A stretch of DNA of 64,000 bases from Flectonema sp. DT1601. Its lineage: Eukaryota. The notes under the pieces were generated by a model, which was given only the letters and a program-made list of their open reading frames with translations, had not been told where the DNA came from and searched no databases. The stretch spans positions 558,001 to 622,000 of the forward strand of contig OZ025783.1 of assembly GCA_964019425.1 (NCBI GenBank). Direction: 5' to 3'. A program made the position numbers and the translations under genes. The first letter of the stretch is position 1. Each line of letters opens with the position of its first letter. Below are positions 20,461 to 51,756 of this stretch, one piece after another.

Positions 20461-20803
20461 AGAGTTCTCGGGCTACCTCATTGTTATGGTCCTCTACTAC
20501 TGTACGCGATTACTCTCTTTTCAATTACAGCTGCACTTTTTGTTAGTTTTTTTTTTATTTCTTGTTCTTGTCATCCATCCTAGCCTTTATACTCTAGCGA
20601 GGATATATTTAATTAATCCTGCCGCTGATTAGCTTCTCTTCGTATAAATTAGTTGTTTTGAAAGTGAGTAAAAGATCCTTAATAACAACACTCTCTCACT
20701 CTCCAACAGTGTTATATCGTATGGAGGGAAGGTTATTATTGTACTAAAAAAATATGTTTAAAAAATTATTTTCACTTCCTTCCGACAGTCAACCGACTAT
20801 CAA

Positions 20804-23800: not shown

Positions 23801-26617
23801 GTTGGGCACTTGTTCGATGCTATCGATTCTGACTACAGCGGACACATCACATATGATGAGTGGATGCGATTCGCTGACAGGAACCAATCAATAATATCCA
23901 GACTGGAAAGAGGTGACAGGGGACTAGATACAGGGAAGTACCACCACGACTCTTCCCGAACACAGATTCGAACTCCGGGTGACGTTTGGTCGCAGCTAAC
24001 GAAAGGAAAGTCATACGCTCAGAGAAGAGATATCCGTGATGCCTTTATTAAGTCTGGGTTAGAATGGGATCAGCTTACTGTTGGGCACTTGTTCGATGCT
24101 ATCGATTCTGATTACAGCGGACACATCACATATGATGAGTGGATGCGATTCACTGACAGGAATCCGAACATCGTCTCTCGATTAGAGCGGACTGCATCCA
24201 GTCCATCGAGAAGTTACTCGCGCACTGATTCTTCACTGTGGTCACAACTGACTCACGGCAAGTCGTATGCTCTGCGAAGGGACATCCGTGATGCCTTCAT
24301 TAGGGCTAATCTGTCGTGGGACTCGATGACTGTTGGACACTTGTTCGATGCTATCGATTCTGACTACAGCGGGCGCATTACATATGATGAGTGGATGCGA
24401 TTCGCTGACAGGAACCCATCGTTAGTCTCACAATTAGAGAGAGGAGCTGTTTCACAAAGAAGTATACCCAGAGATCCGTACACCTCTGGTACCCTCTGGT
24501 CACAGCTAACTCACGGCAAGTCATATGCTTTACGTAGGGATATCCGTGATGTATTCATCAGAGCGAATATCGACTGGGATCAGCTTACTGTTGGGCATCT
24601 CTTCGATGCTATCGACTCCGATTTCAGCGGGCACATTACATATGATGAGTGGATGCGATTCGCTGACAGGAATCCGAACATCGTCTCTCGATTAGAAAGA
24701 GGTGACAGGGGACTAGATACAGGGAGGTACCACCACGACTCTTCCCGAACACAGATTCGAACTCCGGCTGACGTATCGCATTTGTGGTCGCAGCTAACGA
24801 AAGGAAAGTCATACGCTCAGAGAAGAGATATCCGTGATGCCTTTATTAAGTCTGGGTTAGAATGGGATCAGCTTACTGTTGGGCACTTGTTCGATGCTAT
24901 CGATTCTGATTACAGCGGACACATCACATATGATGAGTGGATGCGATTCGCTGACAGGAATCCATCAATCGTATCGACCCTTTGCAGAAGAGTGAACTCT
25001 CATTCAAATTCCCGTTTTGAACAATCCCTATGGTCACAGTTAACTAACGGCAAGTCGTATGCTCTGCGAAGAGATATCCGTGATGCCTTTATCAGGGCTG
25101 ATCTGTCGTGGGACTCGATGACTGTTGGACACTTGTTCGATGCTATCGATTCTGATTACAGCGGACGCATTACATATGATGAGTGGATGCGATTCGCTGA
25201 CAGGAACCCATCGTTAGTCTCACAGTTAGAGAGAGGAGCTGTTTCATCTCCGAGACGCTCTTTCGGGGAAAGTGTTTCCAGAGATGCGCACACAACACGG
25301 AGCTTGTGGTCACAGCTAACTCACGGCAAGTCGTATGCTCTGCGAAGGGATATCCGTGATGCCTTTATCAGGGCTGATCTGTCGTGGGACTCGATGACTG
25401 TTGGGCACCTGTTCGATGCTATCGATTCTGATTACAGCGGACACATCACATATGATGAGTGGATGCGATTCGCTGACAGGAATCCGAACATCGTCTCTCG
25501 ATTAGAGCGGACTGCATCCAGTCCATCGAGAAGTTACTCGCGCACTGATTCTTCACTGTGGTCACAACTGACTCACGGCAAGTCGTATGCTCTGCGAAGG
25601 GACATCCGTGATGCCTTCATTAGGGCTAATCTGTCGTGGGACTCGATGACTGTTGGACACTTGTTCGATGCTATCGATTCTGACTACAGCGGGCGCATCA
25701 CATATGATGAGTGGATGCGATTCGCTGACAGGAACCCATCGATAGTCTCACAATTAGAGAGAGGAACTGTTTCACAAAGAAGTATACCCAGAGATCCGTA
25801 CACCTCTGGTACCCTCTGGTCACAGCTAACTCACGGCAAGTCGTATGCTCTGCGAAGGGATATCCGTGATGCCTTTATCAGGGCTGATCTGTCGTGGGAC
25901 TCGATGACTGTTGGGCACCTGTTCGATGCTATCGATTCTGATTACAGCGGACACATCACATATGATGAGTGGATGCGATTCGCTGACAGGAATCCGAACA
26001 TCGTCTCTCGATTAGAGCGGACTGCATCCAGTCCATCGAGAAGTTACTCGCGCACTGATTCTTCACTGTGGTCACAACTGACTCACGGCAAGTCGTATGC
26101 TCTGCGAAGGGACATCCGTGATGCCTTCATTAGGGCTAATCTGTCGTGGGACTCGATGACTGTTGGACACTTGTTCGATGCTATCGATTCTGACTACAGC
26201 GGGCGCATCACATATGATGAGTGGATGCGATTCGCTGACAGGAATCCGTCGATAGTCTCACAATTAGAGAGAGGAACTGTTTCACAAAGAAGTATACCCA
26301 GAGATCCGTACACACGGATTGAAACGGAACAAATATCTTCATTCAGAGAAGGGAGTGAGAGGAATAATTATTTTGATATCGAGAGACAAGTCAACAACTT
26401 ATGGACTACAATGACTGGTACTGGTAGGAAGAGTGATGTCTGTAATATTGCTTCAATGATGAGAGTATTCTCACGAAGTGGTGAACCAGATTACATCATC
26501 AAATCTTACTTTCGCATTGCTGATGGAGATCTTGATCGTCGAGTTAACTACTCTGAGTGGGTTACATTTGCTCGTGATCATCCGCAAATAATAAAATCGT
26601 TATCACGACATTGGTGA
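20804..26617 (+). CDS. BILBO1-family protein: BILBO1-like N-terminal domain plus a large EF-hand repeat array (1937 aa)
   Basis: N-terminus FRVCIAID...KHNVRF...RPDIDSLMRLAE...IQVY...WTDL...QLFVFQP parallels the trypanosome BILBO1 N-terminal domain; followed by an EF-hand pair and 17 copies of LFDAIDSD(Y/F)SG(H/R)IT(Y/F)DEWMRF. Confidence 0.8.
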   Translation: MGGGISIEGNDRHRGVDTKFRVCIAIDFDRRKHNVRFNIKTSGRPDIDSLMRLAEWHYSREMMAIGGRGRFICDQIQVYSNYTKRWTDLTDASMIPNGGQLFVFQPVSGSYDSDPTPSAIPDAIGEASVTSLRPIHVEYSLEHKLRAVFTSVDKTDKKYILLGEVHDYLSKCRSPSTTDFDYTAVERWFSRLNTRGNGRVTYQQWARFGADHPQLVDLLFDRPRSSVNSVPSQVWNQLAKQHQNYVLRRDIRDAFIKSNIDWDPHSVGHLFDAIDSDYSGHITFDEWMRFADRNPSIVSRLHNTADVWSRLTHGKSYALRRDIRDAFIRAGLSWDSTTVEHLFDAIDSDYSGHITYDEWMRFADRNPNIVSRLERGDRTITSHQRSDLWSQLSGGKSYALRRDIRDVFMKLNIKWDYQNVGHLFDAIDSDYSGHITYDEWMRFADGHPSLVRRLEQQQLNNSYSVRDVDKALITSSWGNLTRGRGNYINTSQLLNLMGGAERDYVVRTYPSGKVYWEDWWTLCHLYPQVPNQVSGQQSLGGGYSQSHPRDRDHSQLSSSEIELGWKKYSRSNLLYPTEVPLALGLSSVGFNFPSSPLTWTDWWDFAHTYVPRSDTWSQLTHGKSYALRRDIRDAFIRADLSWDSMTVGHLFDAIDSDYSGHITYDEWMRFADRNPNIVSRLERTASSPSRSYSRTDSSLWSQLTHGKSYALRRDIRDAFIRANLSWDSMTVGHLFDAIDSDYSGHITYDEWMRFADRNQSIISRLERGDRGLDTGRYHHDSSRTQIRTPGDVWSQLTKGKSYAQRRDIRDAFIKSGLEWDQLTVGHLFDAIDSDYSGHITYDEWMRFADRNPNIVSRLERTASSPSRSYSRTDSSLWSQLTHGKSYALRRDIRDAFIRANLSWDSMTVGHLFDAIDSDYSGRITYDEWMRFADRNPSLVSQLERGAVSSPRRSFGESVSRDAHTTRSLWSQLTHGKSYALRRDIRDAFIRADLSWDSMTVGHLFDAIDSDYSGHITYDEWMRFADRNQSIISRLERGDRGLDTGKYHHDSSRTQIRTPGDVWSQLTKGKSYAQRRDIRDAFIKSGLEWDQLTVGHLFDAIDSDYSGHITYDEWMRFTDRNPNIVSRLERTASSPSRSYSRTDSSLWSQLTHGKSYALRRDIRDAFIRANLSWDSMTVGHLFDAIDSDYSGRITYDEWMRFADRNPSLVSQLERGAVSQRSIPRDPYTSGTLWSQLTHGKSYALRRDIRDVFIRANIDWDQLTVGHLFDAIDSDFSGHITYDEWMRFADRNPNIVSRLERGDRGLDTGRYHHDSSRTQIRTPADVSHLWSQLTKGKSYAQRRDIRDAFIKSGLEWDQLTVGHLFDAIDSDYSGHITYDEWMRFADRNPSIVSTLCRRVNSHSNSRFEQSLWSQLTNGKSYALRRDIRDAFIRADLSWDSMTVGHLFDAIDSDYSGRITYDEWMRFADRNPSLVSQLERGAVSSPRRSFGESVSRDAHTTRSLWSQLTHGKSYALRRDIRDAFIRADLSWDSMTVGHLFDAIDSDYSGHITYDEWMRFADRNPNIVSRLERTASSPSRSYSRTDSSLWSQLTHGKSYALRRDIRDAFIRANLSWDSMTVGHLFDAIDSDYSGRITYDEWMRFADRNPSIVSQLERGTVSQRSIPRDPYTSGTLWSQLTHGKSYALRRDIRDAFIRADLSWDSMTVGHLFDAIDSDYSGHITYDEWMRFADRNPNIVSRLERTASSPSRSYSRTDSSLWSQLTHGKSYALRRDIRDAFIRANLSWDSMTVGHLFDAIDSDYSGRITYDEWMRFADRNPSIVSQLERGTVSQRSIPRDPYTRIETEQISSFREGSERNNYFDIERQVNNLWTTMTGTGRKSDVCNIASMMRVFSRSGEPDYIIKSYFRIADGDLDRRVNYSEWVTFARDHPQIIKSLSRHW
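21503..26311 (+). repeat. Intragenic array of 17 EF-hand-pair units (~200-bp core plus variable linker)
   Basis: 17 occurrences of GAGTGGATGCGATTC counted; the last two unit pairs are a near-perfect 510-bp duplication (25316 vs 25826). Confidence 0.95.
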
Positions 26618-33724: not shown

Positions 33725-34266
33725 ATAGTTCCTGTAGCCCGTTGGAGTATTTCAATATAATTCTAGTAGTAAGTAAACAACACATCCCTTGTAAGATACT
33801 TCTCGCATCGTGTAAACTGAAAAATTGCCAGCAGCAGTCTCTCAAAATCTTACCATTTTTTTGATTTTAACGAGTTTTACGTTTTGTAAACCTCCGTTGG
33901 TATCAAAAATTAAAAAAATAATTTAAAAAAATAGATATTAAAATAGTCAAAAAAAAAAAAAAAAAAAAAAAAACAAAGTAATGTATTTTACACCGTCCCC
34001 TTACCTCTCCCCCCAGCTGCTTTGGTTATTGTAGTTTAGAATTATTGTCCTGTTTTGGAGTAAAAATAATTATGTAGTTTTATGTAGCATAGCGTCACCA
34101 TATTTCTTTTATAACAGATACTCGCATTGTCGTAAATAATTGTTGGCATTCATTTTGTTCAAGTTTTTTTGTTTTTTGTTTCTTTTTTTTCTTCAAAAGA
34201 AAATATTTTATTACTTTTTTCAGAAAATTTACTGGTTTTGGGTGGTTCTCCACCCATCCAAATATA

Positions 34267-37200
34267 ATGGAATCGAGTACAGAATTAAGTGTCGGACAGA
34301 AGGAGAAACAGACAAGAGAAGAAGACGAGGCTGAATTCTTGGCACATACGTTGCCGTTATTTCCAATACTAGGAAGCCTTGGTGTACTGTGGCCATCGCT
34401 TGTCAGTACCACAGCAATACTCATCACTTGTATTCAACCGCTGTCGTATATTTTAAATGCCCATTGGTCATGGGGAACAAGCGTTGGTAGGCTATCTGAA
34501 GTTAGTTACTTTTTCTTACTTCCTTTTTGGGATACGAAGTACCCCTACCACTGGGGAGGGCTAGCTTCATTGGTGGCATTTTGGGTGTTGATTTTCTTTA
34601 CGACAACACTCACTGTTGTGATTGTGTTCTGTTTAAAAGTTGATCTTCTGAAGGGAAAACCTCTCGTAACATTCAGAGTTGCAGTTCATCTTGTCACATC
34701 AACAGCTTTAATGCCAAGTCTTTTAATTATCATGTCAGCTATGGTTTGCGATTCTGACAAGGTTAATGTGTACCTGACACCTGACGTTTCATGCGCCAGC
34801 CCAACTCATTATTTGGCAATATTCGCGGGGTCGATATCATACTGTCTTATTGCATTGTATGCATGCACTGTAAGGACACTGTTGTATGTCGATACTCCTT
34901 TTTCACAAGTTAGAACCGCAAGGTGTCATCATTATAATGAAGTAATATCTCTTTGTTATGAAATCATAACACCGATTCTGTACGTTAATTTGATAGCAAG
35001 CAACAAACACCAGCTATTTGCAAGTTTGCATAGTATCGCAACATTCTTGTTGGCGGTGTCTTATGCCTTTATCCTTCCATATTACAACGACACTTCGAAT
35101 GTGGTTAAGGTTTCATCATATTTCACTGCGAGCGTAACGTCTGCGATAGCCTCAGGTTTGGAATGGGAAGTGACTCAAAGAAATGCAGACATTTCGTTGT
35201 TGATTATTACTTTTATTCTATGCTGGTCGATAGGAATCTCGGTGGTACGTTTTGGGCGAATGAATGGACAGGCTCAAGCAGCATGTAGGAGTATTAGATT
35301 AAATCCGAGGGACTATGTTGAAGAAGTGTTAGAAAGTAATTTAAAATACCCAACCAGATTACCATGGCATGATTTATCGTTTGGGAATTTCTCAAAATAT
35401 GAAGAGGCATTGACTCCTAGCAAGGATACCGATAGCGTTACGGAAGTGGATGCTGTTTTGATTTCTAAAGTGAAACCTGTTCCAACAATGAGAGTCCCTG
35501 GCCTGACTTGTATATACCTACCTACTGATATAGAACTGTGTTGCAGACTCCTTCGTGAATATTGTCAATCTGTAGAAGAGATGCCGACACCGAAAATGCT
35601 TCTTTACTACGGTCGAATCTACAACAAGGGGATATGTAAGTATCCTGACTGTTTAATGTTACGCTATCACTTTGCTTTGTTCTTAGCAAATTATTGTGAG
35701 CAGTATCCCATGGCTTTGTCTGAAGTTCGGAAACTACAAAAAGAGGATCTCTCTATTCCCCTCATCTATCGACTTTATAAATTCAGTACCCTCCTGAAAA
35801 GTGTATTAAATATCAGAGATTGTACCCATCAAAAGGTTCTTCAAAGAGCAAGATCTCTTCACAAGCAAACTCTTGGGTATATGGTCAGCTTTTGGGTTAA
35901 ACTGCTCAGTGATAAATTTGACACGTTAGATATTGCACAGTTAGCCAACACGATAACTGAGAAGAGAGATGAAGGAATGCAAGTTTTCGAAGAAGCTGTT
36001 GCAACAAAATGCGACATAGCAACTGCTCTTGGATATGCAAAGTTCTTAGAACAAGTAATGTTAGACGTAACTGGTGCTCAACTTGTAAGAGAAAAGATTC
36101 TCGAACCCAATGATGACAAATCAGTAAAGTCTGGTTCACTACATTGTCAATCACAAACCGAAGAACTTCGCAATCATATTATCAAATCATTCGGTAATAA
36201 ACGTCTTCGTAAGACGAAGAGTAAAACAATAAACAGATTGTCAGCTGAGATGCACATCTTATTCGTTGTGTTTGCCATCATAATTGCTGGGGTTGGTGTT
36301 TTAAATACGATTCTTGGCACCCGCAGAAACGAATTAGTTAGCACCGCACACGAAGCAGGAGATCTTCGGGCACTCGTTGTTCACGGAGCATATATTTCCA
36401 GGAGAATTAGACATGCAGCAGAAATAGAGAAAATGGGCGATTCTGCCTGTAGGAAAGCAGTATGTAACCCTCTTGGGAAAGTTCAGGGAACGAATGATTG
36501 TTCAAAGCAGTCATTTTTAAAAACTACTGAGCTGAAAGCCGAGCTCCTCAAAATGACCAACGAGATAAGAGATATAACTGGTAAACTAACATACGGTGGA
36601 CATAGGACTTCTTATGGACCGTTGATTGCTCATTATGGAACACAGTCGACTGAAATAATAACAGTGGCTGGGAATGACACTGGTTCTGCTCGTCTTGCAG
36701 GTCTTTGGGAAGTAATATTATTAGCAATCGCTTCCTTTGAGTCGATCTTAGATTCTGATATGCCGTGCTTGACTGAAGGTGCTCCACAAGCCTTCTTAGA
36801 TGAGAACAGTCTGTTCGCTCTATCTCATTCTATGAACGTCTCTCTCAACTTATACGAAGAACAGTTTGAATTAGCAATGACTGAGGGTTTAGTTATAAAT
36901 ATCTTTTTGTTTTTTGGAGGACTGTTTGTGGTTATATGTGTATACTTCGTGTTGGAGATAAACTTCTTGAAGATCGGGATGGCGAAGATGGAAACGTTAA
37001 ACTTATTTGCACTGATACCAAAGAACACAGTAACAGACATTCACGCAGACAGTAGCGATCATTTATTGAATTTTGAAATTGCTGATACCCAGCCGAGTGG
37101 TGATAGTTCTGCGTCTGTTGTAAATGATGAAGACAACGAGCAGATCGCTGATGAAGATGGAGAAACTGCATTTGCGAAAATATTTAGTAAAAATACGGCA

Positions 37201-40200
37201 AAAGCTGATGGGGCGTACATCAAACATAAATCTGATACGGAAAAGTCTGTTCTTGGAAAAGAACGTCAAGTTGTACGCCAACGTTTTGATGACGATGAAA
37301 TGACTCAATTAGACGACGACGCCACTAACATCGAATCAAAAAGAAGCTACTGGTCACGCTACGGACATATCTTATTGTGGGGTGGTCGTGGACTGTCAGT
37401 AGCAGTCTGGTTGGTTACTTTTATTCTTTTCTTTATCGCGAGAGGTCTGATGCAGGATGACATTAATGGTTCCCTTGTCGAACTCGACTACGAGAACATC
37501 AGATCTCAACTGTTAAGAGACATCAGAACTTGGGAGAAGAATGCTCAATTTTATTCTTTAACTTGTGACTTGGATGCTTACGTGTCGTACAATGATATTT
37601 CTGACAAGAGGGTTTTGGAAAAAACTCTTTCAGCATTGCAGCTACTGGTGTCCACTCCTCATTATCATTTAGAAATTACGGAGGGTATGAAAAAACTAAG
37701 AGAAACTCACGATTATGTAATGCGAACCAATCGCTGTGACAATCCTCTGAAGGAATACTTTGTTGATGACTACTACGATGGGTCATTGGTTGGACTGTTT
37801 GAGAAGGAGGAACACGTCGTAGCAAAAAAGAAACTATTTGATGCAGTTTCAGCAATGAATCATATAATACCAAGACCTGCTGCAAGTCACGATGTGCTGC
37901 TGTTAGTTGCCGTTCTCGAAATCGTTCTCGCAGCGATGTTTCTTTTGCTCCCAAGTCATTCTTCTCACAGCACTGTAAGTAATATTTTATTTAAACTGTG
38001 TTCAGTTGTCACAGTTGTAAATATGTTGTTCACTTTTGCGTGTCTCAGGAATGTTGATATCGTGAATTCACTTCGAGTCAACATGTTGGACATTCAAACA
38101 GCAACTGATAAAATGGAAACAGTTTTATTCAGCAGTGAATCATCACTCTACGCTTACATATCTTATAGAGACCTCGAACACTACGAGGGTGTTGAAAACC
38201 ACCATGTCGGTGATGCTGTTGCAGAAGTAGTCCAGCTTCTGATTAAAGAAGGATACTCGTACGATTCTCTTTCTCAACTTCAAGATAAAATAGCAGAATA
38301 TTCAATGCAACATGGCCATGCTGTTGTCGCAGCAGCTTTATCGAATAACCATGAATTAGCAGAGATAATGACTGTTCATCTTCTTACAATGGACATACGA
38401 GGATTAAATAATAGCGAACTGTATGCAAAGGCACAGTACACTATTAGATCAAAGGAATACGTAAATTCGTTTAAGGAATTTCATACGGTCCTCGAGGAAC
38501 TAAACCTTTACAGCTATGATGTGTTTAAAGGAAAGGAAGCACTCGCTAACAGGGACACCAAGACTATTATGGTTATTGTCCTAGCTGCGCTTATTTTAGG
38601 CCATGGCATCTTATCGGGAGTTTCTGTGTCGAAATCATCTCAAGTAACAAATACAAAAGAAAGTGCAGCTTCACCGGCAGCGCTATTCGTAGACTTAACT
38701 AGTAAGATAAGAATGTCGTTGGTAATTGTCGCCTTGATTCTTATCGCAATCTCAATATTTGAGATAAAAGCAGTTCTTGTAAGCAGAGATCTCGCTCCCA
38801 GGATTAATCAAGCATCATCACGTGAATGGCTCGTATGTCGTGGAATCTTATCCAGTCAGCAATACCTCGAGAGGTCAGTTGGCTCAACCTTACCCGGACA
38901 TCTTAGATGGTCAAAAGAAATAGTTCACGAAGTCATAGGAGAACTCAGAGAAAGTAGCGATCGATTATATTTTGGACCAGGCAGTAAGAAAGACTTTACA
39001 GCATTGGAGGTGTTCGGGCCAACGAAGTCGAAGAATAGCAGGACGCAGTGCGCGAATGTTGACTACATTCCATTTATCGATGTTGACAGTGAATGCAGAA
39101 GATTTTCTTCTCGCATTCTGGAATTGCGATATGAAGACTCTCACGAACAGTTGTCTAATGACGATATGTTGACTTACGTTGAACATGTTCTCACTGCTCT
39201 TCGTGACAACACGAGGAAGTTTGAACAACGGGCAAAAAAGGAAATCAGCAAACAGCAACTATCGTTAACTATTTTATTATCAATAATGGTAGCAGTTCTG
39301 GTCCTCGAGTACGTAATCGTATTCGAGCCAGTCACAGCTCGTTTACAACGAGAAGAAGAAGCAACAAAACTCATGCTGCGAATGATTCCTGAAAAGGAAC
39401 GCCGTACCGTAGGTGCTATTGTTGAATATCTTGAAACAGGTAAGATCACAACGAATACTAAACTTCAGGAAGTATCAGAAGCTGTCAGTGAGATGAATAC
39501 GATTCCAACTATTGCTATTGATGGTTACGGCACGGTTTTAAAGTTCTCAAAATTAGCTGAAGAACTATTCGGATTCACTGACCGAGAAGTAATCGGATGT
39601 AATGTTAAAAAGATCATCCCTGAAGACATTGCTAAAAATCACGACTTCTACCTTGCTCGATACCGCAAAACAGGAGTACGACACATAGTCGGTTCGGATA
39701 GAAATGTTAAGGGACAGAAGAAGGATGGAACCCTCTTCCCAGCTAATATTTGTGTGAGAGAATCTCGGAGGGGTAGAAAATCAATTTTCATTGGATTTGT
39801 CACTGATATTACACTTGACCTCGAAAATGCCCGTGCCACTCAACTAAACGCCACAATTTCGAAAACCAGCTCCACCCCCTTTGTCTGCGCAAATCAAAAA
39901 GGAGGCATAATAAGATGGAATAAGGCTGCTGTAGACGTATTTGGTTTTACCGAAAAAGAAGCATTGCAATGTAATTTGAAAGTTTTGATGACGCCCGAGG
40001 TTGCTGAAAAACACGACTCCTACATTGAAACGTATCTCAGAACTAAAAAGAAAACTGTAATAGGAAATACTGTTCGCCAAGTTGCTGTTCGAAAGGGAGG
40101 TGAAACATTTCCAATAGAGCTACGCGTTGAGGAGTTGATGTGGACGGGATCAGAACGAATCTTTAATGCTTGCGTAAAAGATATAACAAGCGTATGTTTT

Positions 40201-43200
40201 ACTTCTCATTATTTTATTAATCAAAACAAATAATTTCATCAACACATTCAATCAGGTTGTTAGGGCTACTCGACTAGTAGCCATTCATGAGATTATGATG
40301 AGAATGTCACCAACTCCGATGGTAATGGCGGGTCAGACTGGTATCATAACTCAGGTAAATCCTCAGGCTGAACTGGAGTTGGGGTGGACATCTCGCGACG
40401 CCGTTGGCAAAAATGTTAAAATATTACAACCAGACAACGTGAAAGCAAAACATGACGGCTATCTATCCGCCTATGTCAAGACGGGAAAGAAGAAAATGAT
40501 TGGCAAGACTGCTGATGTGAAATTAATCAGAAAAGACGGAACGTCTTACGATGTGGCCTTGAGTGTGAGGTCAGTATCACCTCCTCCTGATAGTTCTTTT
40601 CAACACGTCTTTCTCGCATTCTTCAGAGATCTCACAACAGATAAGAGGAATGAAGCTGTCGCATTGACGACTGCAAAGTCCGCAGCACTATCACCTACAC
40701 CATACATCTGTATAGATGAGATAGGTACTATGATGGTTTTTAATAAAGCTGCAACTCAATTAATTGGATACACAGAACAAGAAGCAGTTGGTCAGAATGT
40801 AAAAATGATTCAACCTCCCGACGTGGCAGCCAAACACGACGGTTACTTAGCAACATACAAGTTGACAGGTGAAAAACGAGCTTTGGCGTCTGTGAGGATT
40901 ATGAAATGTAGGAAAAAGACCGGAGACGTGTTTTCTTGTGAATTGAAAATAGCTGAAACAATACTGCCGACGGGGGAAAAAAGATTTTCGGGATACATCA
41001 TGGATGTCACTGTGAGAGAAACAACAATTATAAACAACGAAATGTGCGATGCCGTTGTCAGTATCTGTCCGTACCCATTGATCGCTATAAATCCACAAGG
41101 CAGAATTCAAGTATTTTCAAAAGCTGCAGCCCAACAATTTGGTCACACAACAGAATCAGTTATGAACCGCAATGTTAAAATAATTATGCCGGAAGAGTAC
41201 GCCGCAGAACACGACCGATACCTTCAGAATTATTTAGACACCGGAAAGCCGAATATAATTGGAAAGATTGGAGTACCGGTGACTGCTATGCGAGCTAATG
41301 GGGGTGTTTTTCAGGCAGAAATATCAATTCAGGAAGTGAAAAAACAACAAGTCAGGGTATTTGCTGCAGTAATCATCGACGTTGAAGCCCTTCGTGGAAA
41401 AGACGACAAACTCCGAGTAGCAAACGTAATAATGATGAAAAGTCCATCTGCGACTATCGTTATCGGAGCTACGGGTCTTATTGATGTGTTTTCTTATGAG
41501 GCTTTGAAATTATTTGGATATTCAGATTTTGAGGAAGTCAGAGGAAAAAACATTAAAATGATGATGCCAGAAAAACGTGCCGAAATGCACGACCACTATC
41601 TTTCAATGTACGCAAAGAAGGGAATTAAAAATGTTATTGGAAGAGACTTCAGAGAACTTGGAAAGCGTTTAGACGGTACTGAAGTAGAACTCGCCTTCGC
41701 AATTAGAGAACACGCGATCACAGACATGTTTGGAGTTCGTTGGACTAAGTTTATAGCATACGCGACAGACACACGAGAGGCATATCTCGCGGAGCAGGCG
41801 AACGTTCTTAACGAAGTTGCTGTTGACATGGCTGACTTACCATTTGTCAGACTTTCCTTAACCGGAAAGATAGTGAGAATTAATAGAGAAGCTGAAGAGT
41901 GTTTTCAATACACTTCTAGAGAAGCAATTGGAATGAACATCAGAATGTTCATGCCTGAAGAGATCGCTTCAAAGCACGATGGCTATCTCGCAAAGTATCG
42001 AAAGACGGGTACGAAAACTGTGATTAATCAAACAACCCGACAAACTGGTATTAGGAAAAATGGAAAAACATTCCCCGTTGAGATATGTGTGAGAGAATTA
42101 GAAGAAGTAGATGGTCAGATGTGGTATTGCGGATCTATCAGAGATATTACGGCCAGAACTATTGAAGAACAAGAGCTAGACAGAGCAAAGAAGATAGTTT
42201 CACTGACATCAGAACCAATGGTCTGTATCGATGCTAAGGGTATCATGTTAGAAGCAAATGTTGCTTTATCAAATTTAACCGGTTTCGACGTTGGCACTCT
42301 TAAAGGTTCAAATATTAAAATACTAATGCCTGAAGAAATCTCTGTCAAACACGACCAGTACCTTAAAAGTTATCTTAAAACCCGAGAAAGAACAATCATC
42401 GGAGGTGAACCTCGTAATATTGTATTCAAAACACGTCGCGGAGAATTAAACGAAACCTCCATTAGAGTTCAAGAATTAGAGGGTGAAGGCATCTATGTTG
42501 GATTCTTTTCAGTTGATTTTCAAGAAAATCTTTTATCAGAAACAAATCAAAAGACTCACGAGGCGTTATTTAAACTTCTAATCAACCCAACACTTATGAT
42601 GACCCACTTGGGGATAATAAAAGAAGCCAGTGTCTCTTGTGAATCATTTGGCTTTGCAAGAAGTGATCTGGTTGGGTCAAACATAACTATGATACAGCCT
42701 CCTGAAGTGGCGTCGGTTCACGATGATATTTTAGCAACTTATACCAAAACAAGAATACCACACGTTATTGGTTCTGAAAGGAGAATTAAAGTTCAGAAGA
42801 AGGATGGAGTTCTCGTTGAGCATAGAATCATAGTAAAGGAAGTTACTCCACCAGACCATCCTGAACCACTTTTTCTCGGCGAACTCACCGACACTTCTGG
42901 TGAAGACTTAGCGACAAAGACCTTTTCAAAAATGAATTCTCTTTTACAACAAGCTCCGTTTGGTATTTTTAAAGTCTCTGAAATTGGTACTGTTGAGTTA
43001 GTAAACAAATATACAGAAATATTCGGCTATGAAGAAAAAGAATACCTCGGCCAAAATATAAAAATGATTACGGGAGTACACAAAGAAAGACACGATATGT
43101 ACTTACAAAAATATAAAGAAACTCGAGTGAAACACATCATTGATACTTCGCAGAGATTAAAAGCAGAAACTAAAGACGGAACACAACTTGACGTTAATGT

Positions 43201-44401
43201 TACAGTCAGAGAAATTGAAGGAAAGAATGGAATGTTTCCTCCAGTATTTGTCGCATGTGTCTCTGACGCCTCACAAGAAATTAAGATGGAAGCAGCTCAC
43301 TGTCAATCAAAATTTATGCTGGACAATATACCATTGCCACTTGTTGTGACTGATACTGAAGGTGTCATTAGCAAGTTCTCGTTATCATTTGAAAGGACCT
43401 TTGGATGGAAATCATCGCCAGTCGGTAGCAATATCACCTCCATCCAACCTCGTAAAGTAGCTGAAAAACATGGTGGTTATCTGAAGGCGTACTTACAAAG
43501 TGGAGTGAAAACCGTGATGGATACGAAAACAGTAGTTACAGCATCGAGTATTCAAGGTGAGCGAATTAAAGTTGAATTATGGATCAAAGAGTTTGCAATT
43601 AGAAATCAAAAACACTACGTTGGGTTCATTAGGGATCTTCGATACACTACCGCAGCTGAAGATTCAAAGCGAACTGGTGAAATTATTGCAACCAATTGCT
43701 CTGCTTCGATAGTTTGCATTACTGAAAAGGGAATTATAAAACAGGTAAATCCTGCGTTCTTATCTTTGACAAAGTATGCAGAGGAAGATCTGATAGACAA
43801 CAACATTCGTCATATTATGCCGGAGCCGCACCGTACCAACCATGACAGCTACCTCGCAAATTACATGGAAACTAAAATAACAAAAGTTATAAACGCTACT
43901 ACTGCAGTAAGCATCATCTCACGAAGTAATACGGAAATAGCAGTTCAACTAACTGTCAAACAATTAGATAGGATTGGTGAGCCTCCAATGTTTTTGGGTA
44001 GTATCAAAGATGCGAGGGAAGAGTTAATCTTAGAAAGGGTTTCAAAGCAATCTCAGATCCTACAAGAACTCTGTCCAGAGACGGTTATTACTTTAACAAA
44101 CAAGGGAATAATTCATAATGTAAATCTCGCATGCAGTGTTATTGGTTACACTCCTGAAGAATTAATTAACAACAACATTACAATGATTATGGACCCAGCC
44201 ATTGCTCCTGAACATCCAGGGTATCTCAAACGTTACGAAGACACTGGAGAGAAACGAGCTATCGGTAAGCAAACTGCAGTTAAAGTCTTAAATAAGGATG
44301 GCATCCTTAGAGCGGGTATACTGCTTCTGCGAGAATGTGGCACCCAAAGTTCGAAAGGTGAAAATAAACAAACTTTTTTTGTTGGTTTTATCACCTTTTA
44401 A
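34267..44401 (+). CDS. TmcB-like polytopic membrane protein with TPR-like region, TM-flanked extracytoplasmic helical modules and 13 tandem FixL-like PAS domains; 2 exons, ~3356 aa
   Basis: Exons 34267-40191 and 40256-44401 joined in frame by a 64-nt GTATGT...CAG intron; N-terminal hydrophobic cluster; 13 repeats of N(V/I)x2-3(M/Q)P...H(D/G/P)xYL..Y..(T/S)(G/R/K). Confidence 0.88.
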
Positions 44402-45255
44402 TTTATTTTTACGTTCTATTCATCTCCCGAAGTCTCCATTGTATGCTTTACAGCGTCTTTGAGTTGGGGAGTTTTTTTTTTTTTTTTTTCCATTCATTCT
44501 TCTGGTGAGGGTTTGCTTCTGGACTTAAGCAGTTGGTGATTGTTCTTTACTGATGGAAAAGGAAATGAAATGAAAAAAAAATAAATAAAAAAAAATAGGA
44601 TCTTTTTGTTGTTTGTCATGTTTCTTTTTAAACGACATTGTTGTTGGGCTTTAAAAGTTACCTCTTGCCTATATATCCCTTATGATGTATTCTGAAGTTT
44701 TTTTTTTTTTTTTTTTTTTAAATTTATAACTACACTTATTCATTTTGACGTTGTTTGTGTCTTTTCGCTGACTGTTTCCACAGCCAGAGATCGGATCAAA
44801 CAAGAGATATTTTTTAATTACCTCTCTAGTTTCTTTTTTTTTCTTGTTCATTTTTTATGTGCTGTCACGGTGTTGCTTATAAATAGTAACCATCAAAAAC
44901 ACATTCATTCCAAGCACATGTTAGTTCCTCAAAGAGCCTGATGAAGCGGTGAAGTAAGTAAAAAAAAGGTAAAGAAGAAAAAAACAAAATAAATAAAAAT
45001 ACCCAAGCATGCTCGCTCCCCCTACAATCTTAACATTATTTTATAGGTGGTAGGTTAGAGTTTTTGGTGAGGTTTTTATTTATTTTTTTTTTTTTCTGAA
45101 CCTAACAGGAAAAACACACTAAACATGAGGAAGAGGTTTTGTCATTTATTTTCCTCCCCCTCGTTTATTATTGTTTTGTACATTGTCATTCACTGAGATT
45201 ATTATCTCTGTTTTAAATAATTTTTTATTCTTAAAAAGCATTCCCATCCACTACA

Positions 45256-45777
45256 ATGGGAGGAATACACACTCGACTTACTGAGTCTCAAGGAATTGAA
45301 GAGCTTACAATAAATAAACGACCTGACTGGGTACCTGATGAAGCAACCACCGTATGCCGTAAATGTGATAAACATTTTAATGGACTTAGAAGAAGACATC
45401 ATTGCAGAGCTTGTGGACAGTTGTTTTGTAGTCATTGTGTAGGTCTTGGAATGTTAGGTAGTTTGGGGTATAAAGGACCTGTATTACAGTGTCATGTTTG
45501 TATGGAACAACTACTACATCAATTCAAACATCAAATATCAACGTTAGTCCTCCCTCGTACTGCTGATACGGAATCTGATGATGAAACTGAAGACGCATTG
45601 ATACCAATTCAACTGAATTACTCTCCCAGTTTAAAAGTAACAGTACCTCAGTCACCTAATCTAGGACCACCGATACTGTCTCTTTGTAGATTAGTTTCTT
45701 CTTCGTTGTCTTCGGTGAGTCCTTCTCCTGAAAGTAGATCTGATTCATCAACACCGTATTGGGAAGGAATAAATTGA
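45256..45777 (+). CDS. FYVE zinc-finger protein (PI3P-binding)
   Basis: WVPDE...CRKC...RRHHCRACG.LFC..C...C..C; N-terminal MGGIHT could be myristoylated. Confidence 0.9.
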   Translation: MGGIHTRLTESQGIEELTINKRPDWVPDEATTVCRKCDKHFNGLRRRHHCRACGQLFCSHCVGLGMLGSLGYKGPVLQCHVCMEQLLHQFKHQISTLVLPRTADTESDDETEDALIPIQLNYSPSLKVTVPQSPNLGPPILSLCRLVSSSLSSVSPSPESRSDSSTPYWEGIN

Positions 45778-47792
45778 TTCTTCTTAAATATAAGATACGA
45801 ATCCTTCTTATGCCAGTGCTAATCTGGAGACTCAATACATTCGAGTTATTCAAGTCACTCATCATGTTGACAGATCTCAACAAAATGGTGACTCCATTAC
45901 TGTTTGAGATATTTAACATTCCTATTTGGATTTGTTTCTTAAATCTTATCAAACAAAGTAGTTTATCTTTCGAATGAGATGATTTCCTTGGATGGAACAA
46001 TAGGCTATCCTGGTGAACACGTTATGTAAGTGAGAAATAAAATAAAATAAAAAATGACATAATACAAAAAAGTTTATTTGATGTTATTCAAATGCAGCCT
46101 TTGCGGTAATTTTTTTTTTTTTTTTTTTTTGGTGTGGACAAAAAAAAAAAAAAAGAATGCTGTAACAGGAAAAGAAGTGCGCCTGTCATGTGGAATAGAA
46201 TATGTCTTGGGGGTTGTAGGTCACGCGTTTTTTTTTACCCCTGTGTGTTTTCTTCTCGACAAGGAAAATAACAATAATAATAATAATAAAACGGAGTAGG
46301 AATAGATCGTCAAAGTAGGCATTACGTCCCACCCATTGCGGTTGATGTTTATCTCTGAAACATTCTTTTTATTATGCGTCTTTGGTCGCTGACCGTTACA
46401 AGTGTTGTTTGGTGTTTGTGGTGTTCTTTTCTGCTTTAGTTGGAACATCGAGGATGCAACTTCTTGTTCTTTTTTTTTTTTTTTTTAAATACTTGCGAGT
46501 AAAAAAGTTATATACAATTTTACACTATTCTACCTGATGAAAAGTCACAACAAAATATCCTTCGCATTTCCCCCCTCTTATTTTTCCTTATTATTGTATT
46601 TTGCTAATTAATTGTTGGGATTTAGATCTTTTTTTTTTTTTATTTTGTTTTCTTATTTCTAAAGTGATTAGAAAAGGGAACCCAATTCAGTAAAACATTT
46701 TTTGGGCGTCGTGAAAAAAAAAATAGTTTTTGTTCATTTTGGTCATCTTTTTTTTTGTAGTTTAATATTGTTGGCTTTGAGTATGAAGCTGTAAGAAATA
46801 AAAAAAACAGTTCTGTTTCCCGTAGTTTTTAAAATTTCTCGTTTTTTTTTTTCTTTTTTTTTTTTTTGCCCCCCTTTCCCCTTTCAGTTTAGCCTTATTA
46901 CTTATTTTAGTATTAAAAAGTTATTACTGTTTTCTACATTGTCAAACAATCACTCTGCTGTCTTTCCTTCACTATAACACTTTTTTCTGTGGCTCACACT
47001 ATCGTGTTTTTGAGTTCACCTTTTGAGACTAATTTAAAAAAAGAAAAAAGAAAAAAAAAAACAGTTGTAGTTGATTTTTTTTTGTTCTACTGCCTTACCT
47101 TTTCCACTCAAATCACGAGAACGTAATTAGTATTGATGAGCTACTCACGCTTTGCATAATTTAATTTTTATTTTTTTTTGGAAGAGAGCATCTTTTGTGG
47201 TTACTTCTGTTCATTTTTTTTTCTTCTGTTTTTAAGAAATGTTTAAACACTTCAAATACATTTCTTCTGGTTGGGTTTGCTTCATGGTTCATGGTTGAAA
47301 GTTAAAGAGTCGAAGGAACTGAGAGATTGTTGTTAGTATCTGAAACAACATCGATCTTCATTAGGATGATATTTTATCCTTTTTTTGTTTTCTTTTTGAA
47401 GTGGAGGATCGATGTGGTGTGGTGTAGGCTAACTTTTTTTTTTTGCAAACACATTTTGTATGTGCTTTCTGGTGACATTCCTCAATCAAAATGTCAAGTT
47501 AGTGTTGTTACTGTCTTTGACTCCGTGTGGTGATTTGTTGGAATTTAATTTTTTTTAATTTTTTTTTTTTTGGCTTTAAAAGCCATTAGGAATGTTCCTG
47601 CAAAAACGTGTCTCAGTTTCATCGGCTCGTCACAACTCACGAGAGTTACGTGAAGCAAAACTACTCCCTTTTTTTTATTGTTATTATTTTATTAAAAAAA
47701 AAAAAGAAATCAAATTGTGACCGACATATGGCATTGTTATTGTTATTTATTATTATTTTTTTTTTGTTATTTAAATCTGTTTAGTTATTATT

Positions 47793-48933
47793 TCTTGCAT
47801 CCTGATCCCTTTAAAAAGAAAAAAAAAATAATAAAGAGATCGATGCAGGGCTACATTTGTTATGTCGAACTCTCTAACACGGCAAACACGTTGTTGTGAA
47901 TGATGTGCTAACCTGAGCTGCGTGGATGTATTTTTAAAAAAGAATTTATACGGAGTTAGGCTTTTTATAATTCCCCAGCAGGTGGTGCAGTCGTTGAGTG
48001 GTTTTGGAGTGAACTGTTTGTTCTTGCGTATACTCTTCACCGCAGGCAAAGAAAAAAAAAAAAAAAAAAAAAAACTGTTTACTTAATAATCTACATCCTG
48101 ATCCCTTAAAGTACAACGGGATCGATGTAGGACCGCATTGATAACCTAATTGTCTTTTTGAGGGCAAATTTTTGACAAAGTATTTGGTTGATTCAGAATG
48201 TAAAATTTTTAATTGTTGCTTAGTCACTTCTTGTTGGTTTAATAGTAGTTAAATAAATCTCCCTTTTTTTTTTTTTGCTCAAATAATTTTTTTTTTTTAA
48301 ATTTTTTATTTCGTCTTAAATAACAATATGCATCCCGATCCCTTCGAACACAGAAGGATCGATGCCATCTTTCATTTTTTTTTTTTTTTTTTTTTTTTTA
48401 CATCCACACTTTCGTATAGAAGGAAATATAACTGAGCTGGTTGATCAAAAGGTTCGCAACTCCGTTTTGATCTCCTTGTTTTTCACCCCTCTGTTCGTTA
48501 GGAAAAGTTCATTATCTCAGCAACTAATGTTAAATTATTATTATGTTGTTTATGATACAATACATTTGTATTTTACGTACAAAATCGAACAGTTAACCCC
48601 CCCGTTCGTGAGCAAAAAAACGCTTTGGGTGTTCGTTTTGGGGGGTTTTCTGATTTCTAACTTGCAGCGCCAAGCCCAATGCAAATTGATTCTACAACCC
48701 CAGTGTACTTCACCTCCAAAGGAATTTATGGAACAAGGTCAAAAGCTCAATTTTATATGTTCTTTTCTTTTTTTTTTTTTTTTGAATGAAAAAAAATAAT
48801 GTTCACTGGTTAATCTTCTCCCACGAGAGTTGTTACCAACCTTCCAGTGTGATGTAAATTATGTGTTTTCTTGCATTTGTTTGATAGTGTTGTCCTCATC
48901 CTGATCCCTTGACACAAATAAAGGATAAGATGA
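47793..48933. repeat. Dispersed family of four hairpin elements sharing CATCCYGATCCCTT...GAT(C/AA)GATG
   Basis: Copies at 47793-47850, 48090-48131, 48328-48368 and 48896-48933; outer stems differ in sequence but remain complementary. Confidence 0.75.
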
Positions 48934-49854
48934 ATAGCATATTATTAAAAAGAAATTCATCAACAGTTAGTTGACACGTACAATTATCTGTTAGCTTAGT
49001 TTCATAAAACGACCAGAGTTTAAGTAAGTAGTTGTTCTACTTTTTTTGCTTTCTCTTCGTAGCAGCCTTATTGGGCGTTTACTTTCTTTTTATGAAGCAA
49101 GGTTTTTGTGCTAAAAGGACACTCGTTTAACCTCCTTTAGCCTTCAGCCAAATTCCCTGCCCTTCCTTCTTCCTGTTTTTGATAAAACGGTTCATCAAAT
49201 GGAAAGTTTCTCCCTTCCCCCCTTTTTTTTATTCACAACAAACGACCTTAGCGATTAATTTATTTGTTTGATAGCTCTTGCTAAAATAGCATAATCAATA
49301 ACCCTAGTATATTGATCTTAGGCGGAGGGAGACTGTAAACTGGTGAGCGGCTTAGCCGTGTTAATGGTGTTTTGCTGTGGTCTTGTAAGGTAAGAGTTAA
49401 GTGACTGTGTTCAATTTTATCGTTTTTATTTATCTCCTTCATTCCCCTTCTATCCCTATTATTTGCCTACCCTTTAATTTTTTTTATTATGCGCTATTTT
49501 AGCTTATTATTACGTTATTTATTTATTTATGTTTTTTTTTTTCTTCTTTTTTTTTTCCCCCTCCGTTGAGCAGAGTGTTTGGGAAGTCAGCGCTATCGCT
49601 TTAGGCTGTCCCACAATCGTGTAAGGCTTTAGTACATCTGGCCTAGTGTATGAAAGAAAGAAATACTTCATTGAACTCTTGTAGAAGTCAAATCATAATA
49701 GAGAGGGTTTCACGTTGACTGAATAATCTTCAGTGACTAGGTGACCCAACTCCTTCTAACTGACTTCCTCGATTTAGTATGCATGATTGAGATCACGGTT
49801 TCCGTTATTTTTCTTTTTTTTACTTTCCTCTACTTGCGTTGGATTGTAGTTAGC

Positions 49855-49891
<37 letters not shown>

Positions 49892-50568
49892 CCCCTCTTT
49901 TTTTAAAAAAATCCAATTTCTATTTTATTATTTTTTATTGAACTAATTATTTATTTTATTCTATTTTTTTTTTTTTTTATCAGTTTTTTCTGGTTTGATT
50001 TACCACTACTGACGAGAGAAACGAAACGATAAAAACCCCAAAAAAAGGTTTAAAAAAAAAAAACAAAACCCACCACATAACGTTAGATAATCACGGTAGC
50101 ACAACTACCTTGTTGTCTGCAGGGCTAAATCGCTAACCGGTATGTAATCCATTAACGGATTTGTTCCAGGCAGTAGTTATTCTGGAAGGCACGATGGTGA
50201 AAACCATCATAAGTTCTATTGAGAAGCTGCTTCTGACCGAATGGTTTTGGTGGTGGGTTGTGACCAACGGAATTCATATTTTAACTGAGCACCGTCTACT
50301 ATTGATCTATTGTAACACCAAAAAGAAATGATTTTTAAAAAAAAAAAAAAAAAAACATTTCTTTCCGATCGTTTAAACGAAAAACTGTCTCGAATCAACG
50401 ATGAACAAGAAGACTGTTCAGTATCCGCACGGCACACTGTTCTGTTGGTAGATAATGTTTTCTATGAGAGTTGATTATGAGTAAAACTTGACTTATGTTG
50501 AATGTCTTTGTTTTATTATTTTTTTTTCACTTCGCTTTTACAGGAATACGATGTAACACAAAAAAAAG

Positions 50569-51756
50569 ATGATAATAATATTTAAAATAATACTCACACT
50601 CTCTCTGTGTATCTCTGTAAGATCTGATATACCAAAAGGAGAGATAGCCAATATCACAAATGGCGCACAAGCATTGATAACGGCAGGTAGATTTCACTGC
50701 CCAGATTGTAACAGCTCAACAGACTGTGGAAAGTATGCATCTGTTGGGAAGAGACAAGCAGACACTGAATGGAGACTTTGGAAGAGTGATTATCACTACA
50801 AGGACGAACAACTATCGGGAATGAAATTATGCCTCCGCCAGTGGATGATTGGATGTAATTGTCCAACAGCACCTTGTCTTTGCAACTCATTTTCGGAAGT
50901 CTGCATCGCTTCGTCAGCTCTCTTTGATGAGGAACACCGTCTTCATCCTTATGAAATATGCAGTACTGAAGCATTTATGAATCCTGGTTCTGTAACTTTA
51001 GTAATTACAATCCCATTGTTTCTTACTATTGCTTCTCTTTGTCTTGTTGTTATAGCAGTTCATTATTCATTTGTTCATGGTTTCGCTACATGTCCTCCTG
51101 CCCTCAGTAGGCTGCCTATAATGTTGTTGTCGGCATTGCTTATTGCGTATTCGTTTCTGACGTTTTTCTCGCCGTATTTTACAACTGGAATCGCTGGTGT
51201 GTTCGTTGCTATCCTGGCGTTGTTTTCGCATACAATCGCACATGCTGCTGAGATTGGCAATAAAATTGATAAAGGACACAGATGGCTATCCTTTGCAGCC
51301 TTCACAACTATTGTAGTAGTGTACACAATATGGGGGGCTGGATATCCAAACAGAGCTGGCTTGTCGGCAGACGAGTTAGGAGCGGATTGCAGTAAGTTCT
51401 ACGGATTCTTTGTTATAGATCAAAAGTTAACACCTCCGGGTTTTAATAAAGAGGTAAAATATTGGGGTTACTGTGAACGCGAATTTATTGCTGACACACT
51501 ATGGAATGTTACAGCTGTTATATGGGTTGGTCTACTCATTAGTGCCCTTCACTTATACACACTTGCTGCGCAGACAACAGCTACTCGGATTGCTGAACAA
51601 GAAGACTTAGAAGGAAAGGTTGCTGGTGGTCCAGGAACATTCCTCGTATCTCGTAGCGCTCCTGGAATGAGAAGAGGTAAGGAACCAATTTCAGGAAGTG
51701 GTACCAGCATTCCTTCAGTACAGAGTTACAGTGATGTTCATGTTATGTTGACATAA
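50569..51756 (+). CDS. Membrane protein with signal peptide, Cys-rich ectodomain and about five TM helices
   Basis: Signal-like MIIIFKIILTLSLCISVRS; ~10 Cys in the ectodomain; five hydrophobic stretches; Cys pair in the last loop (CSKFYG...YWGYC). Confidence 0.8.
   Translation: MIIIFKIILTLSLCISVRSDIPKGEIANITNGAQALITAGRFHCPDCNSSTDCGKYASVGKRQADTEWRLWKSDYHYKDEQLSGMKLCLRQWMIGCNCPTAPCLCNSFSEVCIASSALFDEEHRLHPYEICSTEAFMNPGSVTLVITIPLFLTIASLCLVVIAVHYSFVHGFATCPPALSRLPIMLLSALLIAYSFLTFFSPYFTTGIAGVFVAILALFSHTIAHAAEIGNKIDKGHRWLSFAAFTTIVVVYTIWGAGYPNRAGLSADELGADCSKFYGFFVIDQKLTPPGFNKEVKYWGYCEREFIADTLWNVTAVIWVGLLISALHLYTLAAQTTATRIAEQEDLEGKVAGGPGTFLVSRSAPGMRRGKEPISGSGTSIPSVQSYSDVHVMLT

Follow-up and report, generated by a model that had tools for sequence, protein, structure and literature searches.

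Within a 64,000-nucleotide stretch of the genome of Flectonema sp. DT1601 (GenBank assembly GCA_964019425.1, contig OZ025783.1, positions 558,001 to 622,000 of the forward strand; hereafter the window, numbered from its own first letter), a gene at 34267-44401 on the + strand is predicted to encode a TmcB-family membrane protein that carries 13 heme-PAS domains and ends with the last of them. Its N-terminal ~1,700 residues form a polytopic membrane part, with ~16 transmembrane segments and a TPR_TmcB domain; the C-terminal 1,627 residues consist of 13 diverged PAS repeats. The protein is likely to be a sensor of gas (O2, NO, or CO) or of redox state that has no enzyme domain of its own, a reading to which we assign a probability of about 0.6.

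Thirteen PAS Repeats of the FixL Type

A hidden Markov model (HMM) built from this protein finds 13 domains in the array. A scan for the motif H-x-x-[YI]-[LI] places one histidine in each of them, at residues 1792, 1916, 2041, 2169, 2294, 2420, 2549, 2674, 2797, 2921, 3047, 3171, and 3295, so that the motifs follow one another at a spacing of ~125 residues. In order they read HDFY, HDSY, HDGY, HDGY, HDRY, HDHY, HDGY, HDQY, HDDI, HDMY, HGGY, HDSY, and HPGY. Identity to repeat 1 among the 13 repeats is 21-34%, and the invariant columns of their alignment are G26, N50, H63, and Y70. No tandem repeat was found at the DNA level in 39400-44450, which suggests that the PAS repeats are old. Most repeats have a D-[ILV]-T-like motif past the last strand, after which the N-terminal helix of the next repeat begins. 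The repeats are laid out as follows, with the residue at the distal position discussed below.

39454..39825, + strand: PAS repeat 1; His codon 39640; distal Arg kept; modeled with AF2
39826..40191, + strand: PAS repeat 2; His codon 40012; distal Val
40265..40636, + strand: PAS repeat 3; His codon 40451; distal Ala
40649..41020, + strand: PAS repeat 4; His codon 40835; distal Arg kept
41024..41395, + strand: PAS repeat 5; His codon 41210; distal Val
41402..41773, + strand: PAS repeat 6; His codon 41588; distal Phe
41789..42160, + strand: PAS repeat 7; His codon 41975; distal Thr
42164..42535, + strand: PAS repeat 8; His codon 42350; distal Arg kept
42533..42904, + strand: PAS repeat 9; His codon 42719; distal Arg kept; motif HDDI
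42905..43276, + strand: PAS repeat 10; His codon 43091; distal Gln
43283..43654, + strand: PAS repeat 11; His codon 43469; distal Thr; motif HGGY
43655..44026, + strand: PAS repeat 12; His codon 43841; distal Thr
44027..44398, + strand: PAS repeat 13; His codon 44213; distal Thr; motif HPGY; the protein ends with its last β strand

Comparisons of sequence and of predicted structure point to PAS domains of the FixL/DosP type, for which heme binding is predicted. The NCBIfam model of rhizobial FixL matches 2 + 11 stretches, each over the heme-PAS part of the model, with scores of 152.6 and 576.9 bits that lie below its equivalog cut-off of 850. When exon 2 is compared with the sequences of the PDB, all 13 distinct matches at E ≤ 1e-5 are heme domains of FixL or of DosP/EcDOS. 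A profile of the 13 repeats reaches E values of 1.1e-34 for RmFixL (1d06), 3.4e-32 for BjFixL (1dp6), and 5e-20 for DosP, and its match to FixL covers positions 9-122 of 124; the best PAS domain without a heme-binding annotation reaches only 4.9e-6. A likeness of this strength to FixL is not due to chance. The structure model, which covers repeat 1 only, was built with AF2 from the 13-row alignment and has a predicted local distance difference test score (pLDDT) of 91.3. Foldseek places it closest to FixL 8js5 (TM-score 0.93, root-mean-square deviation 1.2 Å, 37% identity), and its top ~30 matches are FixL, DosP, and another heme-PAS domain. The identity of repeat 1 to FixL in these structural matches is 37-45%.

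A preliminary description of this DNA, made from its letters, had counted 13 diverged PAS repeats, each with the motif histidine; the motif scan, the NCBIfam FixL model, and our own HMM all agree with that count. The likeness of the repeats to the FixL PAS domain, on which that description leaned, now has profile evidence for all 13 and a structure model for repeat 1 only.

The Predicted Heme Ligand and Its Pocket

The proximal heme ligand of FixL is a histidine on F-α, His194 in SmFixL and His200 in BjFixL; in BjFixL, Arg220 forms a hydrogen bond with the bound ligand, and the propionates are held by Arg206 and His214 (PMC10765370, in the part of the article available). Repeats were numbered on BjFixL through 1dp6_A (BjFixLH141-270) with an offset of 139, which sets the histidine at 200, recovers R206, H214, I215, R220, L236, and I238, and agrees with the mutant entries R206A (2cmn) and R220A (1y28). 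With the numbering checked in this way, the PDB and profile alignments both pair the array histidine, which is invariant in all 13 repeats, with the histidine of the FixL HDGY/HDSY motif, as the preliminary description had supposed. The remainder of the pocket is hydrophobic in character. Tyr207 is present in 13 of 13 repeats and Tyr203 in 12, and positions 215, 236, and 238 are aliphatic, except for Ala at 215 in repeats 4 and 13 and Phe at 236 in repeat 6.

The histidine might be conserved for a reason other than heme, and the array might be a heme-free PAS rod that acts as a structural or protein-binding scaffold. PAS domains often mediate dimerization and protein contacts, and the protein has no output domain. 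This alternative nevertheless seems improbable. The histidine is kept in 416 of 416 repeats of the 32 relatives that have exactly 13, whereas ~40% of bacterial PAS domains in the FixL/DosP cluster have lost it (PMC10468136). Moreover, the pocket residues Tyr203, Tyr207, Ile/Val215, Leu/Ile236, and Ile/Val238 are conserved, and the nearest structures are all heme-bound PAS domains.

The equivalent of Arg220, the residue that contacts O2, is kept in only 4 of the 13 repeats (1, 4, 8, and 9), that of Arg206 in 2, and that of His214 in 3. In 12 relatives, 96 of the 122 repeats have the Arg220 equivalent. The family falls into types: some members have the arginine in all 13 repeats (P0127, P0131, P0137, and P0144), and in others it is lost at fixed positions. 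With 4 of 13, the Flectonema protein has the fewest distal arginines in the family, tied with P0153. Read along the array, the residues at this position are RVARVFTRRQTTT in the Flectonema protein, and the strings of near relatives are similar: RIRIQFRRSQTT- in P0153 and RLRRLFRRRQTK- in P0147, whose cluster includes a transcript of Rhynchopus humris. All three have lost the arginine at positions 2, 5, 6, 10, and 11, and the pattern is also resembled by those of P0146 (Diplonema japonicum) and P0149 (Lacrimia). Because the pattern is common to the nearest relatives, the distal-site replacements, judged from these alignments, are not random decay.

One Spliced Gene

The locus shows two long open reading frames (ORFs) placed head to tail on the + strand, 34093..40233 and 40187..44401, which are not in the same frame. 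Splicing of exon 34267-40191 to exon 40256-44401, with removal of intron 40192-40255, gives a protein of 3,356 residues.

34267..40191, + strand: exon 1, 1,975 codons in an open ORF; ATG start, TmcB-like membrane part, and PAS repeats 1-2
40192..40255, + strand: intron, 64 nt, GTATGT...CAG; frame shift +1
40256..44401, + strand: exon 2, 1,381 codons plus TAA; PAS repeats 3-13; 11 FixL-type stretches (Pfam, NCBIfam)

The splice context reads GAT ATA ACA AGC / GTATGTTTTAC...TTCAATCAG / GTT GTT AGG, with the GTATGT donor starting at 40192 and the CAG acceptor ending at 40255, and excision fuses ...KDITS to VVRATRL... in frame. Among frame-preserving GT..AG pairs, this is the sole one shorter than 80 nt with a GTATGT donor. 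GC content is 0.22 in the intron against 0.40 in both exons. The junction is free of gaps in an alignment of the spliced protein to eight full-length relatives, six of which are ORFs from eukprot transcriptomes, and the N terminus encoded by exon 1 can be aligned to relatives from residue ~12. Because removal of the intron restores the frame and yields a gap-free alignment to full-length relatives, the two ORFs are confirmed, at the level of sequence, as a single spliced gene. The preliminary description had joined them at the same intron, and the frame, the dip in GC content, and the junction alignment uphold that step.

Public gene calls divide the locus into P0003 (1,988 residues, ending in read-through of the intron) and P0005 (1,368 residues), and could be taken to mean that two separate genes lie here; a frameshifted pseudogene would be another explanation of the broken frame. 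Both explanations are very unlikely. The split would cut the array behind repeat 2, and the second protein would begin inside the N-terminal helix of repeat 3, whereas in full-length relatives, mRNA-derived ones included, the N-terminal part and the 13 repeats occupy a single ORF. The alignment becomes gap-free on removal of exactly 64 nt bounded by GTATGT and CAG, a like intron is present at 61381-61444, and the exons are otherwise free of stop codons across 3,356 codons. The split in the public calls is considered an annotation error, and the two predictions should be merged.

The N-Terminal Membrane Part

The main features of the membrane part are these.

34399..35247, + strand: first membrane bundle, residues 45-327; ~8 hydrophobic segments by hydropathy
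35830..36087, + strand: TPR_TmcB domain, residues 522-607; PF25474, 30.8 bits against a cut-off of 27
36256..39324, + strand: second membrane region, residues 664-1686; 8 transmembrane segments around four loops of 150-195 residues
39352..39441, + strand: juxtamembrane linker, residues 1696-1725; consensus EE.GT.L.LRMIP..VR..VP.I.E.L..G

Hydropathy analysis gives 15 segments for this protein and 16 for a profile averaged over 30 family members. The first bundle is 34% identical to P0004, a fragment from D. papillatum, and the TPR_TmcB domain sits in a 336-residue loop that is predicted to be cytosolic and has flanks rich in lysine and arginine. In the second region the four large loops (683-877, 1060-1210, 1259-1433, and 1502-1667) are predicted to be non-cytosolic. 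From the even number of transmembrane segments and, by the positive-inside rule, from the basic flanks of the TPR loop, we infer that the PAS array is cytosolic and that the four large loops face outside. In the ESM Atlas, residues 1-1,728 adjoin clusters of TmcB/TmcC proteins with a score of 0.97.

Searches of the large loops and N-terminal segments against Pfam, with E values up to 5, gave chance-level matches only, and BLAST detected no similarity among the four modules composed of a transmembrane segment, a loop, and a second transmembrane segment. The last of these modules (1480-1690) is homologous to the module that precedes the array in P0006, P0007, and P0147. A search with residues 1480-1740 for paralogues bearing another output at this place returned only P0147, which is a family member. 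The linker, just behind the last transmembrane segment, is the best-conserved stretch of the N-terminal part, and a ...L.LIP...-like motif is found also behind the transmembrane segment at 878-896. The idea that the linker is the remnant of a class III cyclase transducer was rejected: a profile of 13 linkers searched against the PDB reached only E 1.5, and with an unrelated protein.

A Conserved Family in Euglenozoa

The repeat profile, run against 1.84 billion representative proteins, had 166,472 matches at E ≤ 0.001, and the best 150 were considered further. The top matches are mostly proteins of ~3,000-3,650 residues with 13 matched stretches. In 51 of the 149 other proteins among these 150, the N-terminal part is homologous to the first 700 residues of the Flectonema protein, with phmmer E values from 1e-208 (P0129) to 1e-13. 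Exactly 13 repeats were counted in 24 of the 51 TmcB-like relatives by our own HMM, which derives from this diverged copy and undercounts some members that the search tool scores at 13. The preliminary description had proposed a search of euglenozoan proteomes for the same architecture, and at least 51 representative proteins have it. By homology and layout the gene is not a singular oddity: it belongs, as one unexceptional member among many, to a conserved family of Euglenozoa.

All named members are euglenozoans, and they have the same layout as the Flectonema protein: a TmcB-like N-terminal part, the conserved linker, 13 heme-PAS domains, and an end at the last PAS domain. Among diplonemids they come from Artemidia motanka, Lacrimia lanifica, Namystynia karyoxenos, Sulcionema specki, Rhynchopus humris, Diplonema japonicum, D. 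papillatum, and records with the prefix 'Hpha', which we take to stand for Hemistasia; among free-living kinetoplastids they come from Papus ankaliazontas, Apiculatamorpha spiralis, and Bodo saltans. Two or three paralogues occur in several of these species. The named full-length members share 25-33% identity with the Flectonema protein, and the nearest N-terminal parts are diplonemid. The two D. papillatum proteins, KAJ9471628.1 (3,418 residues) and KAJ9448465.1 (3,183 residues), are both labeled 'Sensor protein FixL', and the Bodo saltans member is labeled 'methyl-accepting chemotaxis protein, putative'. Judged by domain content these names mislead, for the proteins have no kinase domain and no chemoreceptor signaling domain.

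The repeats also hold their places within the array. Of 429 repeats, 337 find their best match in another protein at the same index, a count that is inflated by kinship among the proteins, where chance would give ~33; in the Flectonema protein 8 of the 13 repeats do so. Identity to P0006-P0008 alone gave no clear positional orthology, whereas the larger family did. A FastTree phylogeny of 90 euglenozoan repeats and 104 domains, the best ones of other proteins, parts these groups in a single split with a support of 0.98; the other domains are mostly from bacterial histidine kinases, together with two chytrid proteins, a sample biased toward relatives of the query. These results fit a single acquisition of a bacterial-type heme-PAS domain, its amplification to 13 copies, and fixation of the array before diplonemids and kinetoplastids diverged, a direction and a timing that we infer.

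Some of the matched proteins depart from this layout. P0006 (a eukprot transcript of 2,299 residues), P0126, and P0132 have 13 repeats without the TmcB-like first ~1,000 residues and keep one or two of the transmembrane-loop-transmembrane modules; they may be shorter paralogues or truncated models. P0167 from Paulinella micropora (4,799 residues) was rejected as a member, having 31-32 PAS domains together with HisKA, HATPase_c, and receiver domains. Its PAS domains are very similar, and it is an unrelated giant in which a PAS array is joined to a kinase output.

Absence of an Enzyme Domain

No kinase, cyclase, or other catalytic domain was found in the Flectonema gene with Pfam and NCBIfam, or in the relatives examined with Pfam, and neither collection has a HisKA or HATPase_c match in this protein. 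Because there is no kinase output and the scores fall under the equivalog cut-off, the protein, by these measures, is not a FixL orthologue. In 11 family members Pfam detects PAS-type families and TPR_TmcB only, the latter in 7 of the 11, and the long "tails" of two members are further PAS domains. The same holds for 12 relatives chosen for their PAS arrays (PAS-type families and TPR_TmcB only), and the N-terminal fragment P0004 shows TPR_TmcB alone.

The stop codon TAA at 44399-44401 follows directly on ...FFVGFITF, one residue past the last domain envelope. Downstream, 44402-50556 is AT-rich with long T and A runs. A gene for a FYVE zinc-finger protein of 173 residues (E 2e-17) lies at 45256-45777, 0.85 kb downstream of the PAS gene, with an ATG of its own at 45256. 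Beyond it, 46000-50500 is ~4.5 kb of AT-rich sequence (GC content 0.31-0.33) with many homopolymer runs and no ORF above ~160 residues.

The last repeat ends abruptly at FFVGFITF, without the usual D-x-T motif, and this might be a sign that an unseen downstream exon supplies a kinase, a cyclase, or another enzyme domain. Such an exon is nevertheless very unlikely. No GT donor stands directly before the TAA at 44399. No enzyme-like ORF was seen by eye among the 79 other ORFs of at least 40 codons in 44300-50600, where Pfam was run on the FYVE ORF only. Finally, 41 of the 51 family members end at most 40 residues past the last PAS domain, and relatives known from transcripts end 0-14 residues past it. 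The preliminary description had stated that the protein stops at the last PAS strand and has no catalytic output; the position of the TAA agrees with the first statement, and the Pfam results here and in relatives, which likewise end at the last PAS domain, agree with the second.

Possible Mechanism and a Possible Role in Heme Storage

If the protein is a sensor, each repeat would hold one b-type heme through its F-α histidine. A change of ligand or of redox state at the hemes could be relayed along the helix-linked chain of PAS domains to the conserved juxtamembrane linker, and from there to the membrane part of the same protein or to partners attached to it. The membrane part would then take the place of a kinase or cyclase as the output. 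Ligand affinity might differ between repeats that keep the distal arginine and those that lack it, because the residue that contacts O2 is replaced at fixed positions, and such differences may broaden the range of signals or of O2 concentrations that can be read. A bolder version is that the family represents a new class of eukaryotic gas sensor, a rod able to dimerize in which each of the 13 hemes is tuned by the distal pocket at its own position, so that O2 (perhaps also NO, CO, or redox state) could be read across a broad span. The summed state of the hemes would act through the linker to gate or regulate the TmcB-type membrane part, and gas sensing would be tied directly to a membrane activity without an enzyme. 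This version is speculative, and we put it forward as an unlikely extension.

Several observations weigh against a role as a gas or redox sensor. Nine of the 13 repeats lack the O2-contacting arginine, and most equivalents of Arg206 and His214, the partners of the propionates, are replaced. Several repeats may therefore have a low affinity for O2, take other ligands, or be six-coordinate, and it would be unsafe to credit all 13 with O2 sensing of the FixL kind. Heme binding itself is predicted from sequence. The topology comes from hydropathy and from counts of lysine and arginine, and of the four loops assigned to the outside, two are flanked by stretches rich in these residues. An AF2 model of residues 1-660, made from a two-sequence alignment, has a pLDDT of only 39.5, and no Pfam family matches the large loops of the membrane part.

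The same replacements bear on a different view of the hemes, in which they are cargo, or are themselves the signal, and the protein is a heme store, buffer, chaperone, or sensor of heme level at the membrane. The 13 predicted heme sites per chain and the lack of an output enzyme would suit such a role, as would the loss of most equivalents of Arg220, Arg206, and His214 with retention of the histidine and the hydrophobic pocket. Kinetoplastids are heme auxotrophs. Mere storage, however, would hardly explain why the distal arginine is kept in 96 of the 122 repeats of relatives, and in 13 of 13 in some, a difficulty that is eased in part because in deoxy FixL that arginine also touches a propionate of the heme. 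The 13 repeats differ from one another and keep strict orthology by position, which suggests differentiated roles and not bulk capacity. A function in heme storage or handling is a possibility to be kept in mind, at low probability. We favor the sensor without an enzyme domain.

Other Genes of the Window

All 17 ORFs of at least 200 residues lie on the + strand, and the intergenic regions contain long T and A runs; the genes of the window seem to form a cluster read in one direction, of the kind found in euglenozoans. This one-strand layout, the short introns, and the diplonemid affinity of the N-terminal part indicate that the organism is probably a diplonemid. An SMC-like gene is represented by ORFs 12368-14464 (SMC hinge) and 14395-15510 (SMC_N), between which 14424-14530 is a probable intron of 107 nt, GTTTGT..ACCAG; several acceptors keep the frame, so its exact end is uncertain. 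An ORF of 1,951 residues at 20762-26617 is full of EF-hand motifs (EF-hand_5, E 1.9e-89; many of the matches are weak and overlap), and its region is the sole GC-rich part of the window, at 0.48-0.49 against ~0.40. The intron at 61381-61444, GTATGT..AACAG, is the second of 64 nt and joins ORFs 59541-61439 and 61270-63999 in frame; the latter ORF has Ion_trans and Ion_trans_2 domains and belongs to an ion-channel gene.

Relation to Known Heme-PAS and TmcB Proteins

Rhizobial FixL, the O2-sensing heme-PAS histidine kinase known from BjFixL and Sm/RmFixL, has the same domain type as each repeat of the array, with the same histidine and hydrophobic distal residues. It differs in having one heme-PAS domain and a HisKA/HATPase kinase, where the Flectonema protein has 13 such domains and no kinase, resides in a eukaryote, and is fused to a TmcB-type membrane protein. 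Nine of the 13 repeats have no counterpart of the distal Arg220 of FixL. The second-best group of matches by sequence (5e-20) and by structure is E. coli DosP (EcDOS), a phosphodiesterase of cyclic di-GMP with a heme-PAS domain; it carries GGDEF and EAL output domains, for which there is no counterpart here. As read from the alignment, no array repeat has a methionine at the position of the distal ligand of DosP, the residue numbering of which we assume. In Chlamydomonas reinhardtii, the FixL-like heme-PAS proteins called FXL reportedly bind heme and O2; they are said to have far fewer PAS domains and to place them in a protein context different from that of the 13-repeat array.

Several heme-PAS domains in one receptor chain are known from Vibrio vulnificus Aer2, described as a 'tri-PAS-heme oxygen sensor' (PMC10107281, in the part of the article available). 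It has three PAS domains to the 13 found here, with a chemoreceptor signaling domain as output. The heme-PAS domains of Aer2 are of another class, with the histidine on E-η (PMC10468136). The three PAS-heme domains of VvAer2 make the largest heme-PAS array that we found in print.

The membrane part has its relatives elsewhere. The TmcB/TmcC family, the tiny-macrocyst proteins of Dictyostelium, is linked to cyclic AMP signaling in the sexual development of that organism (bioRxiv 10.1101/2021.03.14.435266, in the part of the preprint available). TPR_TmcB is common to these proteins and the Flectonema protein, where it scores above the Pfam cut-off. The TmcB/TmcC clusters of the Atlas comprise proteins of 1,100-1,700 residues with TPR_TmcB as their only common Pfam domain, whereas here an array of 1,627 residues is appended.

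The domain type is thus known, and public databases already list members of the family, with names given by automatic annotation. In open-access papers and bioRxiv we found no description of 13 positionally fixed heme-PAS domains on a eukaryotic TmcB-type membrane protein without an enzyme, and no study of PAS arrays of the FixL type from either kinetoplastids or diplonemids.

In bacteria, the textbook heme-PAS sensor has a single heme domain that serves a single enzyme. Diplonemids are among the most abundant and diverse of marine heterotrophs, and across diplonemids and free-living kinetoplastids the copy number of the array is fixed, with the histidine present in every repeat examined. If the hemes are real, they would let these protists sense oxygen or redox state, and the TmcB family would gain a defined input.

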